Of a DNA stretch of 9,319 bases, positions 1,601-7,358 are shown in pieces. The position numbers were made by a program, and so were the translations under genes. The DNA is from an uncultured archaeon (lineage in GTDB: Archaea > Asgardarchaeota > Lokiarchaeia > Sigyniarchaeales > Promethearchaeaceae). The stretch covers positions 1 through 9,319 of the forward strand of contig CAYRPF010000099.1 in assembly GCA_964426185.1 (NCBI GenBank), in the 5' to 3' direction. Every line of letters begins with the position of its first letter. The stretch's first letter is position 1. The notes beneath the pieces were generated by a model that worked only from the letters and a program-made list of their open reading frames with translations, ran no database searches and was not told the DNA's origin.

Positions 1601-3280
1601 CTAAATTACCATTTCTTTTCCCTTGCTCGGTGTTATTATTTCAATTTTATCCGGAAGGCTTAATTTGGACAAAATTTCTGGATGTTCGGAATGTATCACC
1701 AAGATTTTTTTTGGATTGATTGTTTGAATCATTTTTTCTAAATCTTCGGGAGAAAGATGTCCTGAACAATGGGCATTATGAATAGTTGAGGGAGTAATCT
1801 GAAATATATCAAGCCAATTCAATAATTTATCCATTTTTATCTCTGCTTCATCCGTAAATGGTTCACTTTCTGACCGAATCCAATGAGAACCCGCGGGCGG
1901 TCGGATATCTAATAAATCGGTTAAATTATAAAAAGAAAGCTGTAGACAGAATTTAGATGGATTCTGATGTATTTCTTGCGCTCGAATTTGATGTGAATCA
2001 TTATATATTGCCTTACAATCTGGTGATCTACTGTAATCCTTCGCTTCATAAACACCCCATCCTTTTTTCGGCAAAAATACTCGAATTTCCTCAAATTCTT
2101 TTTCAGAAATTTCGGTTTGGCCGAGTTGGACCATTAATTTTAAAAACAGATAAGATTTTGGAAGTAATACAAGAGAACGATTTTGGGATTTACAAGCCAG
2201 GAAAAAAGATTCCAACCGATTTGTATCTCGGCCTGCACAGGTGAATAAGATCAATTTTGGTGAATCTCCTTCCCGATTTTCTTCACGAGCTAAACGAATA
2301 ATCCTGGCTAGTTCTTTGCAAACATCATTTTCAGTGGCAAATTTGTTAAATTCTTTATTATCTATGATATCTTGGGTGAAATTATCTTGATTTGGTGGAT
2401 TTGCCGCTTCAATTCGACCCAAACGTGTACCTTCTGTAATTAAAAGATCAGGATGAAAATTTTGCGCGGCTGAAATGAATTTTTCTGTAAGATCGCGCCT
2501 ACGCCCGTGAAATCTCAGATCACCGGTATAAACTATCCGTTTTTTCGTAATTTTATCTTCGAGAAAATAAGCTCCGGCGCCTGGTAATGAATGATCCACG
2601 GGAAAGAACTGAACTTCGAAACTGCATGTTTCTTCCAAATCACCCTGATAATATGCAGGTAAATCATAAATCTTTCTCCATATAATTTGGAAATTTTTAC
2701 TTTTTTTATTCATACGGCCCCCTTTTTCATCAATTTGAAATCTTACTCCATATCTCAAGATATCTGAAAACATGGTACCGCTTTTCGAATAAGTTTCAAG
2801 AAATTTTAATATGGATTTGCTTATTTTCCCGCACACCAACGAAATTTGAGGATTTAAATATCGGATACTTCCAATGTGGTCCCCGTGACAGTGAGAAATG
2901 AGAACATGGGTAATTTTAAGTGAATCGTTTTTCATGTACGGAAAGATTTCATGAATTTGCTGTTCATTAAAAGCCCATAGATCTGGTCGATAGATTCCTG
3001 AAATCAAATGATCTGGTAGAGGAAGAAATCCCATTTGAAAACCATCAAACAACACTTGTGTTTTCCGAATAGGCAAGAATTCATCGAAATAATCATTAAA
3101 ATACCGAAACTCAAATCCAAAATCCAAAAAGATCGCTCTCCCATCAGCTGCCTTTAAAACGATCTTATTGCCTCCAATTTCATTTAATCCTCCATAAACT
3201 GCAACTGATGTGGTCTGTGTTGAATGAACCGTTAAATTTGCCACATTTGGTCTATTTACTCTACTTTCTCTATTCTTCAT
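1601..3280 (-). CDS. Metallo-beta-lactamase-fold beta-CASP ribonuclease (RNase J-like)
   Basis: Motifs in order: GGLNEIGGNKI, FLDFG, ISHCHGDH (HxHxDH), VDHSLPGA, YTGDLRFHG, LITEGT, C-terminal HCSGH and IHSEH. The exact start is uncertain because about 24 residues precede the first conserved strand. Confidence 0.9.
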   Translation of the reverse strand: MKNRESRVNRPNVANLTVHSTQTTSVAVYGGLNEIGGNKIVLKAADGRAIFLDFGFEFRYFNDYFDEFLPIRKTQVLFDGFQMGFLPLPDHLISGIYRPDLWAFNEQQIHEIFPYMKNDSLKITHVLISHCHGDHIGSIRYLNPQISLVCGKISKSILKFLETYSKSGTMFSDILRYGVRFQIDEKGGRMNKKSKNFQIIWRKIYDLPAYYQGDLEETCSFEVQFFPVDHSLPGAGAYFLEDKITKKRIVYTGDLRFHGRRRDLTEKFISAAQNFHPDLLITEGTRLGRIEAANPPNQDNFTQDIIDNKEFNKFATENDVCKELARIIRLAREENREGDSPKLILFTCAGRDTNRLESFFLACKSQNRSLVLLPKSYLFLKLMVQLGQTEISEKEFEEIRVFLPKKGWGVYEAKDYSRSPDCKAIYNDSHQIRAQEIHQNPSKFCLQLSFYNLTDLLDIRPPAGSHWIRSESEPFTDEAEIKMDKLLNWLDIFQITPSTIHNAHCSGHLSPEDLEKMIQTINPKKILVIHSEHPEILSKLSLPDKIEIITPSKGKEMVI

Positions 3281-3417
3281 GGTTTTTCGCTCAAAAGGTT
3301 TTTTGAATCATATTTACTATCAATATCTCTATTATTATTACTGTGAGAAATACATAAAAAATACCTTGCATTAGGCTTTTTTAAAGTCTTAGATGGGTAT
3401 ATGGGTGATATTTTAAG
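3281..3417. promoter_or_regulatory. 137-bp divergent promoter region shared by the beta-CASP nuclease and the Pelota-like gene
   Basis: Head-to-head genes. Palindromic TTTAAA at 3380-3385 and an archaeal-type Shine-Dalgarno GGGTGAT at 3403-3409, 8 nt before GTG 3418. Confidence 0.6.
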
Positions 3418-4251
3418 GTGGGGAAAAAAAAAACGCGGGGAAAACGAGGATATCCATTGGCACTTCTTATCGGCTTCTTGCCCATGCATCTTGTTTATTA
3501 TAATATCTTCAGTGAACGAGTAGAATTGCGAAAAAAACGAAAATTGCCCCGAAAATTTGATAATATGGATAAAAAACAGAAATATGCATTTTTTGAAGAA
3601 ATTGTGAGTGAACTCCGCCCAATTCTCCAGAATGAATTAAAAAATGTGTTGCTTGTGACCAAACCTAAAAAGAAAGAAGCCCAAGAATTTTTGAATCATT
3701 TACAACAACATCACCGTTGGATACTCAATCCTGATCATCATAATGCGGCTACGTTCAGTCATCTTACCGGAGATGTCTCCGATTTAGAAAATGCATCCAT
3801 TTTTCTTCAATCCTCTGAAATTCAAAAAAAAATCGGCCAAGCAAATGAAATTGAATCAAACAGAATTATGAAAACATTAGAACAGCGCTTAAATGACCCT
3901 GATCAAGGATTTACTCTGCATACATTAAAGGAAATTGAAGATCTCATCTATGCTGGAGGCACGCGCAAGAAAAAATTTAAAAAACTAGCCTTAAATCCGG
4001 AATATATCTTGATAACCGATCAATATTTGGAAAATCAATCTAATAAAAATCGACTCCACCGTCTTTTACAAATCGCCCAAAATCGTCAAATAAGAACGAG
4101 AATTATTGATAGCGGAACAAATGCGGGTAGTCGACTTTCTAATCTTGGAGGAATTGTCTGCTTTTTAAAAATGACCAGCAATTATGAAAAACAAAAAGGA
4201 GAAGAATTTTTCGATAAAAAAGAGGAAAAAGCTAGTGGGAAAAAAACATAG
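3418..4251 (+). CDS. Pelota/aRF1-superfamily protein containing only the middle (eRF1_2-like) and C-terminal (eRF1_3/L7Ae-like) domains
   Basis: LPRK...AFFEEIVSEL...VLLV...EFLNHL resembles the Pelota M domain. ESNRIMKTLEQRL...EYILITDQYL...LLQIAQNRQIRTRIIDSGTNAGSRLSNLGGIVCFLK resembles the eRF1/Pelota C-terminal signature (G..L..LGGI...L[RK]). No GGQ or NIKS. Recognised by eye, not by HMM. Confidence 0.8.
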   Translation: MGKKKTRGKRGYPLALLIGFLPMHLVYYNIFSERVELRKKRKLPRKFDNMDKKQKYAFFEEIVSELRPILQNELKNVLLVTKPKKKEAQEFLNHLQQHHRWILNPDHHNAATFSHLTGDVSDLENASIFLQSSEIQKKIGQANEIESNRIMKTLEQRLNDPDQGFTLHTLKEIEDLIYAGGTRKKKFKKLALNPEYILITDQYLENQSNKNRLHRLLQIAQNRQIRTRIIDSGTNAGSRLSNLGGIVCFLKMTSNYEKQKGEEFFDKKEEKASGKKT

Positions 4252-6326: not shown

Positions 6327-7358
6327 TTAAAAAAATTGCCGCCAATCCAATTTATCCTTGATTTTGCGAAAATATTCTCCCAACTCGCGATAAGTATACA
6401 AAATAATATTATTCTTTTCCAAAAAATCCCGAAACTTGGGATTAACCAGCACCTCATAGTCTTGAAATCGACCAATACTCATGTCAGGATCAATTCCTTG
6501 CATTTCATCACTATAAATAGCTGGATGAAAGATTAAATGCGACAATCCTGGCTTAATCGATTTAACCAATCCCTTAAAGGCTCTTAGTTTATTTTTAACG
6601 GGTTGTAAAGAAGTAAATTTAATCTCATCAACTAAAGGATAACCCGCTTCTTGCAAAAGGTTAAGTTGGCTGCTATATTTATTAAAATCTTCTTTAAAGT
6701 CCATATATTCAAACATCTGCTTGGTCATTTTCGGAATCAAAGCCGGAATGCCAAATTCCACTGCTAGTTTTATAAGAACGGGTAAAAATTTCGGATGACC
6801 CGGAGCAAACATATGCGAATCCATATGAGTTAAATTTATGCCCAATTTTTGCAGATGCTGAATTTGAGCACGAAATTCTTGTTCTGCCGCTTCTAAAGAA
6901 ACATGATTTACCGACTCTTTCAAATTTGCCCAGAGAAAACCATTTGCATCGACTAATCCCGAATCTGGTGTGTTGCTCGCAAAAGGTCGCCATTTATATA
7001 ATGGATATTCACTGTTTAGGGTAAGGTGTACCCCAATATCCCATCTTTCTGGTGATGTTTGTGACGTTTGTGACGTTTGTGCTGTTTGTGCTGTTTGGGA
7101 TGTTTGTGCTGTTTGGGATGTTTTTTTCGATGATTTCTCTTGTGTTTTTTCTTGCAATGCTTGAAAATTTAAAAGAATATTGGCAATCTCAGGAACCCAA
7201 GATGAATTTGCAATAATCGAGCCCGTGCGAAAATTTGTCTTGGAAAAAATATTCTTAGCCGCTAAATTCGCACTGTGAGAAATACTCAAATCATCCAGAT
7301 GCAGAATTACAACTTTATCGTTGGTAGAAAAACCTAGATCATTAATTATCGATTCGAT
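6327..7358 (-). CDS. YdjC/ChbG-family carbohydrate deacetylase (about 343 aa if started at ATC 7358)
   Basis: Motifs DIGVHLTLNSE, LTHMDSHM and LIFHPA. The frame extends upstream of the ORF-track TTG (7289) through IESIINDLGFSTNDKVVILHLDD, which holds the family N-terminal xDD motif. The family call is confident; the start coordinate is less so. Confidence 0.85.
   Translation of the reverse strand: MESIINDLGFSTNDKVVILHLDDLSISHSANLAAKNIFSKTNFRTGSIIANSSWVPEIANILLNFQALQEKTQEKSSKKTSQTAQTSQTAQTAQTSQTSQTSPERWDIGVHLTLNSEYPLYKWRPFASNTPDSGLVDANGFLWANLKESVNHVSLEAAEQEFRAQIQHLQKLGINLTHMDSHMFAPGHPKFLPVLIKLAVEFGIPALIPKMTKQMFEYMDFKEDFNKYSSQLNLLQEAGYPLVDEIKFTSLQPVKNKLRAFKGLVKSIKPGLSHLIFHPAIYSDEMQGIDPDMSIGRFQDYEVLVNPKFRDFLEKNNIILYTYRELGEYFRKIKDKLDWRQFF
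7052..7123. repeat. In-frame coding minisatellite, 8 x 9 bp (G[TG]G[AC][TC]GTTT)
   Basis: Plus-strand units: gtgatgttt, gtgacgttt x2, gtgctgttt x2, gggatgttt, gtgctgttt, gggatgttt. Encodes TSQ-TAQ-TSQ-TAQ-TAQ-TSQ-TSQ-TSP on the minus strand. Confidence 0.95.

Follow-up and report, generated by a model that had tools for sequence, protein, structure and literature searches.

Pelota (Dom34) is built from N-terminal (N), middle (M) and C-terminal (C) domains, of which only the N domain senses the mRNA channel; the surfaces contacting the GTPase belong to M and C (3wxm, 5m1j), and the C domain also makes the contact with ABCE1 (3j15). The mapping of ribosome hibernation and quality control in archaea has only just begun (HibA/AHA, 2025-2026). 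Pelota meets switch I and II of Hbs1 through its PGF motif, on which both Pelota-Hbs1 binding and no-go decay reportedly depend (PMC5187420, PMC6397311). Elsewhere in the eRF1 superfamily, the bacterial protein Balon, a relative without the GGQ motif, occupies the A site in an mRNA-independent manner (PMC10901736), and a 2026 survey placed candidate archaeal homologues of Balon only in the Methanosarcinia, Syntropharchaeia and Thermoplasmatota (PMC13324472). Loss of the codon-reading domain from eRF1-type proteins has precedents in the acVLRF1, Vms1-like and baeRF-1 families, the domain being replaced in acVLRF1 by a short N-terminal extension; in the classification of Burroughs and Aravind (2019) the domain-loss families all lie on the aeRF-1 side and the Dom34-like clade consists of canonical Dom34 only (PMC6514570). 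Investigation of a 9,319-nucleotide (nt) stretch of Lokiarchaeial DNA (contig CAYRPF010000099.1 of assembly GCA_964426185.1, here called the window and meant at its whole length) revealed a gene at 3418..4251 on the forward strand for a protein of 277 amino acids (aa) which, judged by profiles and models, comprises a Pelota-type M domain and C domain alone.

The coding sequence opens with GTG (3418-3420), ends with TAG and has a Shine-Dalgarno-like GGTGAT (3404..3409, forward strand) 8 nt before the start; this hexamer includes a TGA (3406-3408), in frame and 12 nt before the GTG, that stops the frame from extending upstream. Since this stop is present and the divergent gene for a 559-aa protein starts at 3280, leaving a spacer of 137 nt, the upstream DNA cannot code for an N domain, whose size is about 130 aa, as the first-pass annotation of this DNA had maintained. 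In the alignment the homologues start with M-G-K...K-R-G-Y-P, and the GTG is therefore favoured over an internal ATG as the start codon; in the orthologues the open frame likewise ends shortly before RGYP, the full-length matches having stop-to-stop frames of 240-291 aa. Right after the start codon lies a run of ten A (3424-3433) that encodes KKK, a homopolymer of the kind prone to sequencing and slippage errors; no error is evident, and the reading frame agrees with that of the homologues. The G+C content of the window is about 35%.

Along the forward strand, a basic leader with the signature R10-G11-Y12-P13 (3418..3456), whose residues 1-10 include six K/R and no D/E, is followed by the middle, eRF1 domain 2-like domain (residues ~9-139; 3442..3834), in which K82-P83-K84 (3661..3669) occupies the position of the Pelota PGF motif as mapped by hhalign columns onto P204-G205-F206 of the Pelota of the same genome. 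The C-terminal domain, belonging to the eRF1 domain 3 or 'Pelota' L7Ae-like type (residues ~140-253; 3835..4176), was assigned from Pfam eRF1_3 and the 5eo3 fold match and closes with a conserved LGGIVCF strand; alignments show a basic loop, GGTRKKKFKK (residues 180-189; 3955..3984), inserted in it, which is shared by the Lokiarchaeal branch, is shortened or absent in other branches, and is where the predicted local distance difference test (pLDDT) of the structure model falls to 68. A C-terminal helix (YEKQKGEEFF; helix 255-273 in the model) and a basic tail complete the protein (4177..4248), the helix being conserved in the Lokiarchaeal branch and the tail being unique to the window copy.

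Regarding the fold, the AlphaFold2 model, for which 23 homologues served as input (pLDDT 83.8; predicted template modelling score, pTM, 0.72), has as its first strand residues 13-20 (YPLALLIG), corresponding to the first strand of the M domain. Every chain at Foldseek ranks 1-46 was a Pelota, Dom34, aRF1, eRF1 or Balon structure (43 of them at E <= 1e-3), headed by Dom34 and Pelota with E about 1e-10 over about 250 columns. Structural alignment with VIA-align gave the highest scores with Pelota of A. fulgidus (Z 14.2; model residues 1-252 on chain residues 104-340), ribosome-bound Pelota 3j15 (Z 13.3; root-mean-square deviation, rmsd, 5.2 A over 229 residues), the human Pelota C domain 5eo3 (Z 13.2; rmsd 2.1 A over 98 residues) and yeast Dom34 (Z 13.0; chain residues 136-382), the three whole-protein matches spanning 208-229 residues; eRF1 and aRF1 scored Z about 9-11, Balon Z 8.5-10.8, and the human eRF1 M domain 2hst alone Z 8.9 with 117 residues aligned over model range 9-139. 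The order of the domains as well as their folds thus matches eRF1 domains 2 and 3, which places the protein in the eRF1 superfamily, and the structural match to these two domains that the first-pass annotation had called for was found with both programs.

Sequence models detect the relationship only faintly. The Pfam scan of the window protein gave eRF1_3 only, just below threshold (23.6 bits against a cut-off of 25.8; E 7.8e-5), and no match to the eRF1_2 hidden Markov model was obtained despite the M-domain fold; eRF1_3 is also matched by 17 of the 23 homologues. The pelota model TIGR00111 aligned residues 32-252 of the window protein with profile positions 161-349 (E 0.002) at 17.5 bits, far under its equivalog cut-off of 177.65, and was the sole translation-factor model matched by more than one member (5/23; best 2.2e-8). 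A single-sequence phmmer search of the PDB found no match for the window protein, so that the kinship is visible only to profiles and folds. Aligned by hhalign with the Pelota of the same genome, the family profile covered 225 columns (Pelota residues 126-357; E 5e-4), whereas with the genome's own aRF1 only the last 42 columns aligned; likewise, a profile of 42 members searched against the PDB matched Pelota/Dom34 with E values between 1.8e-8 and 5.7e-5, the best aRF1 standing at 1.6e-3. Together with Pelota Z scores of 13-14, the profiles uphold the earlier description of the protein as a Pelota paralogue with M and C domains only; that description's further details, the absence of GGQ, TKPKKK at the PGF position and the Lys/Arg patches, are all present as described.

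Pelota/Dom34 (TIGR00111, COG1537) is hence the nearest family on every sequence and structure measure. Besides the M and C folds and the lack of GGQ, the two have in common a C-terminal LGGI strand, an acidic residue ending the first M-domain strand (in most members) and a conserved F after the PGF position. Unlike Pelota/Dom34, the family has no N-terminal domain, has P-x-K/R in place of PGF, carries the basic leader and RGYP motif as well as invariant positions of its own, and is far more basic. With aRF1/eRF1 (TIGR03676) the protein shares the superfamily and the M and C folds, but it lacks the NIKS domain, GGQ, and the zinc-ribbon or mini-domain. Balon (Rv2629; NF052289) is comparable as a GGQ-less member of the superfamily with matching M and C folds; however, it has three domains, an HP motif at the decoding centre and a beta-hairpin that binds EF-Tu-GDP, and it groups with aeRF1 while the sequence affinity of the present family is with Pelota. 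The Balon model NF052289 matched neither the window protein nor any of 23 aligned members. The acVLRF1, Vms1-like and baeRF-1 families differ from the present one in being on the aeRF-1 side and in that many of them retain a catalytic Gln loop (PMC6514570), and none of the Pfam baeRF and acVLRF1 models matches the window protein.

Literature searches for archaeal Pelota proteins that are paralogous, truncated or devoid of the N domain gave no result, nor did searches for the two locus tags given below. On the strength of sequence and model comparisons, this is an undescribed, conserved and very basic family of two-domain Pelota relatives of Asgard archaea and Bathyarchaeia. Some IMG records automatically label members 'stalled ribosome rescue protein Dom34', with the architecture undescribed.

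A homologue search recovered 35 relatives at E<=0.01, with lengths of 186-305 aa, most being 241-277 aa and the shortest being fragments; they include NEF87_002146 of Lokiarchaeum ossiferum and DSAG12_01744 of Promethearchaeum syntrophicum, the two cultured Lokiarchaeia. An exhaustive search of representative sequences gave 115 clusters at E<=1e-3, a lower bound for the family; gene fragments aside, their lengths run from 219 to 277 aa, and the one longer match is a 721-aa repeat-type protein matched over a stretch of 34 residues only. Members labelled Bathyarchaeota/Bathyarchaeia make up a shorter branch (about 219-232 aa), and one cluster carries a Thorarchaeota label. Three-domain proteins were absent from the 115 clusters; full-length close homologues, which the first-pass annotation had named as the finding that would make this a truncated remnant, did not occur among them. 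Of 301 sampled Asgard genomes, a genome scan detected the gene in 52; four additional weak matches were canonical Pelota genes. By family it was present in 5/6 genomes of the window's own, 31/69 of the sister family, 6/11 of f29, 8/76 of f9 and 1/28 of f7.

Regarding selective constraint, Nei-Gojobori ratios of nonsynonymous to synonymous rates (dN/dS) were 0.11-0.23 for the four closest ortholog pairs with computable dS, values that are approximate since dS, at 1.3-2.0, is near saturation. The homologues thus have the same N-terminus and are under purifying selection, both of which had been proposed as checks. The open reading frame at 3418-4251 (forward strand) is a real gene rather than a chance frame, because sequence, length and N-terminus are conserved over 42 aligned members (down to 23% identity) and because of the low dN/dS. 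That the gene is a truncated remnant or a pseudogene of Pelota is hardly credible: one of three domains is gone and the window copy departs from four near-invariant residues, but the architecture and N-terminus recur in the 52 Asgard genomes and in Bathyarchaeia, the dN/dS range is that of a constrained gene, the fold is confidently predicted, and an intact canonical Pelota is encoded elsewhere in the genome.

The family signature was counted in columns over the same 42 members. The N-terminal leader has a median of 10 residues, with a median of 5.5 K/R and 0 D/E, and is followed by (K/R)-R-G-(Y/F)-P, in which G11 occurs in 42/42 members and R10 in 39/42. Positions that hardly vary are W28, S32, Y56, E60, G73, H94, H98, Q218, N222, G244 and G245, those up to N222 being the invariants that distinguish the family from Pelota/Dom34. 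Four of these form a polar set specific to the family on two M-domain helices, with Y56 and E60 on one helix face and H94 and H98 on another; the set does not correspond to a Pelota motif and might serve as a structural network, or else make up a new site for metal or for some other function. Members differ by up to 9 residues in the length of the loop at the GGQ position, whose sequence also varies, with neither Gly nor Gln conserved, so that peptidyl-tRNA hydrolysis of the eRF1 kind is unlikely.

The PGF motif has likewise been lost throughout the family. Its first column is P in 26/42 members, the second is variable, with G outside the six commonest residues, and the third is K/R in 29/42, with F outside the six commonest residues. 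Since the Gly and Phe are lost family-wide, delivery by aEF1alpha-GTP in the canonical way, and hence a decoy role, is argued against. The first-pass annotation had suggested an EF1alpha decoy, that is, a protein sequestering aEF1alpha-GTP from tRNA, Pelota and aRF1, and this idea did not hold up: the GTPase-contacting M and C domains are present and the C-terminal GGI(V/A)xxL strand common to Pelota and eRF1 is retained, but the motif needed for Pelota-Hbs1 binding (PMC5187420, PMC6397311) is replaced, and stoichiometric titration of aEF1alpha, which is among the most abundant proteins of the cell, appears implausible, leaving such a role very unlikely. Complex prediction with the genome's own aEF1alpha and GTP, run with no controls, gave scores of 0.10, 0.57 and 0.24; the median of 0.24 is under the mark of 0.32, and the scores bear on binding in neither direction.

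The charge of the family also sets it apart. The window protein has an isoelectric point (pI) of 9.79 and a net charge of +18, and 22 other members have a median pI of 9.55, giving a family value of about 9.6 versus about 6.8 for Pelota (6.81 for the genome's own Pelota; 5.76 for its aRF1). High pI, the lack of any translation-linked gene context and matches of the C domain to L7Ae, eL8 and Nhp2-type proteins (Z 8.3-8.8) would suit a protein in which an L7Ae-like C domain and a cationic M domain have been re-used for a structured RNA outside the ribosome, for example in a kink-turn ribonucleoprotein. This is nevertheless quite unlikely, as L7Ae likeness is general to eRF1 C domains, both domains and their arrangement are Pelota-like, and all characterised relatives with M and C domains act on the ribosome (PMC6514570, PMC10901736).

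The host genome, which is 92% complete, encodes canonical translation factors alongside the two-domain protein. Its own aRF1 (423 aa; TIGR03676, 476 bits) and Pelota (360 aa; TIGR00111, 253 bits) are both present, so the separate full-length genes that had been sought were found, and aEF1alpha, whose best match is a 97% identical Candidatus Lokiarchaeota protein, and ABCE1 are likewise encoded. Within the order, canonical Pelota was detected in 76 of 81 genomes. The two-domain protein is therefore accessory to canonical Pelota, aRF1, aEF1alpha and ABCE1 and replaces none of them. No stand-alone N domain was detected in the host genome, matches to eRF1_1 being limited to the canonical Pelota and aRF1 genes, and a split gene with a separately encoded N domain was rejected on that ground. 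An eRF1_3 match on contig C128 proved spurious and corresponds to an FtsY-like gene. A second EF1alpha-like GTPase (L021:385-2016, plus strand; contig C64 of the host assembly, G000) is of the CysN/NodQ type (TIGR02034, 345 bits against a cut-off of 336) and runs off the contig end; with this CysN-like score it was rejected as an Hbs1/eRF3-type factor.

Regarding ABCE1, the genome has, besides the canonical copy of 604 aa (L025:1501-3315, plus strand), a further, divergent ABCE1/RLI paralogue (643 aa; L024:1298-3229, minus strand; contig C3) that is 37% identical to it, with insertions in and after the iron-sulfur (FeS) domain and both 4Fe-4S cysteine motifs intact. Adjoining this paralogue is a gene for a Gtr1/RagA-Arf-like small GTPase of 304 aa (L024:127-1041, plus strand), a typical eukaryote-signature GTPase of Asgard archaea. 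Of the 301 sampled Asgard genomes, 27 have orthologues of the paralogue (48-80% identity); most of the 27 are Lokiarchaeial, and 20 have the two-domain gene as well, a co-occurrence that is suggestive but confounded by relatedness. A literature search for papers on Asgard ABCE1 paralogues found none. The two-domain protein might accordingly be an alternative adaptor that docks in the factor site, where its C domain would meet the FeS domain of either ABCE1 or the paralogue, so that ribosomes with an occupied mRNA channel would be split, or large subunits acted on, in a second route of rescue or recycling. The C domain, which is the ABCE1 contact in canonical Pelota, is well conserved, the best superposition is with the ABCE1-bound Pelota chain 3j15_A, and the paralogue with its FeS motifs would be a candidate partner; however, 32 genomes with the two-domain gene, including a non-Lokiarchaeal Asgard branch, show no ABCE1 paralogue, and incompleteness of the genomes adds to the effect of relatedness on the co-occurrence. 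An adaptor role of this kind is doubtful rather than far-fetched.

The reading preferred here, to which a probability of roughly one half is given, is by analogy with known superfamily members, Balon being the closest in function, that of a ribosome factor, probably a binder of the A site or factor site, that would be blind to mRNA and uncoupled from a GTPase and would serve hibernation or an alternative route of rescue or splitting. The much increased positive charge, together with a Lys/Arg tail where the N domain was once joined, suggests direct binding to rRNA, and the protein would contact rRNA in the factor-binding and A-site region of the ribosome. Because the N domain has been lost, no sensing of the mRNA channel is expected, and the channel would be left unprobed; canonical delivery by aEF1alpha-GTP would have been lost along with the switch-contact motif. 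Ribosomes or free large subunits would then be occupied whatever the codon in the A site, with either of two purposes: idle ribosomes might be held inactive and protected, in the manner of Balon, or the protein might give ABCE1-type splitting a hold on ribosomes that are closed to canonical Pelota. Of the first-pass annotation's proposals, those of ribosome hibernation, parking or splitting are plausible. In the model, the arrangement of the M and C domains deviates by an rmsd of 5.2-5.6 A (215-234 residues) from accommodated, ABCE1-bound or Balon states, versus 13-16 A from GTPase-bound states; this is a weak hint of an accommodated-like state, in which the AlphaFold domain orientation, at pTM 0.72, should not be over-read. 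A fuller version of the idea, put forward tentatively and at odds well short of even, is that of a minimal A-site factor derived from Pelota that would bind ribosomes or free 50S subunits unaided through its cationic surface and Lys/Arg tail, either as an independently evolved archaeal counterpart of Balon in hibernation or as a factor of large-subunit quality control, perhaps with the lineage-specific ABCE1 paralogue.

Several observations weigh against the reading of the protein as a GTPase-uncoupled ribosome factor. The patchy spread of the gene, present in 24 of 90 high-quality Asgard genomes, shows that the protein is dispensable. Conserved gene neighbourhoods were not detected across L. 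ossiferum, P. syntrophicum, another Promethearchaeota metagenome-assembled genome (MAG), a Thorarchaeota MAG and two Bathyarchaeia contigs. A different mode of contact with aEF1alpha, through the C domain, may persist despite the loss of PGF, as Balon binds EF-Tu-GDP in a comparable way, and the L7Ae-like fold of the C domain (Z 8.4-8.8 in the model comparisons) makes a non-ribosomal RNA target possible. The window copy is itself a somewhat deviant member, with L21, Y28, E73 and N242 where 38-40 of the 42 members have E/D, W, G and Q/other, respectively; it has also diverged strongly from its same-genus ortholog (proportion of nonsynonymous differences, pN, 0.27), and constraint may be relaxed or shifted in this genus. 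Finally, the public runs that hold the stretch are DNA metagenomes only (hydrothermal vent, marine and sediment), with no RNA run among them.

The Dom34-like clade would gain its first structural variant in a conserved Pelota derivative lacking the N domain and the PGF motif, which would constitute a natural experiment on the capacities of the M and C domains minus sensing at the decoding centre. As the two cultured Lokiarchaeia carry the gene, the idea is open to direct testing.

Regarding the neighbouring genes, the divergent 559-aa gene (1601-3280, minus strand), which stands head-to-head with the Pelota-like gene, encodes a metallo-beta-lactamase/beta-CASP-type protein that has an RMMBL motif at its C-terminus and weakly resembles RNase J (TIGR00649, 49 bits, far under the cut-off). 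The adjacency of the two genes recurs only in a same-genus genome (G210), where the beta-CASP protein is 58% identical; a surveillance module of nuclease and Pelota-like gene was rejected, the adjacency being genus-specific. PADLOC defence models matched neither three family members nor this neighbouring metallo-beta-lactamase gene. Elsewhere in the window, the gene for a YdjC-like protein (6327-7289, minus strand) encodes in its N-terminal part a low-complexity (T/S)-(S/A)-Q-T repeat, SQTAQTSQTAQTAQTSQTSQTS.

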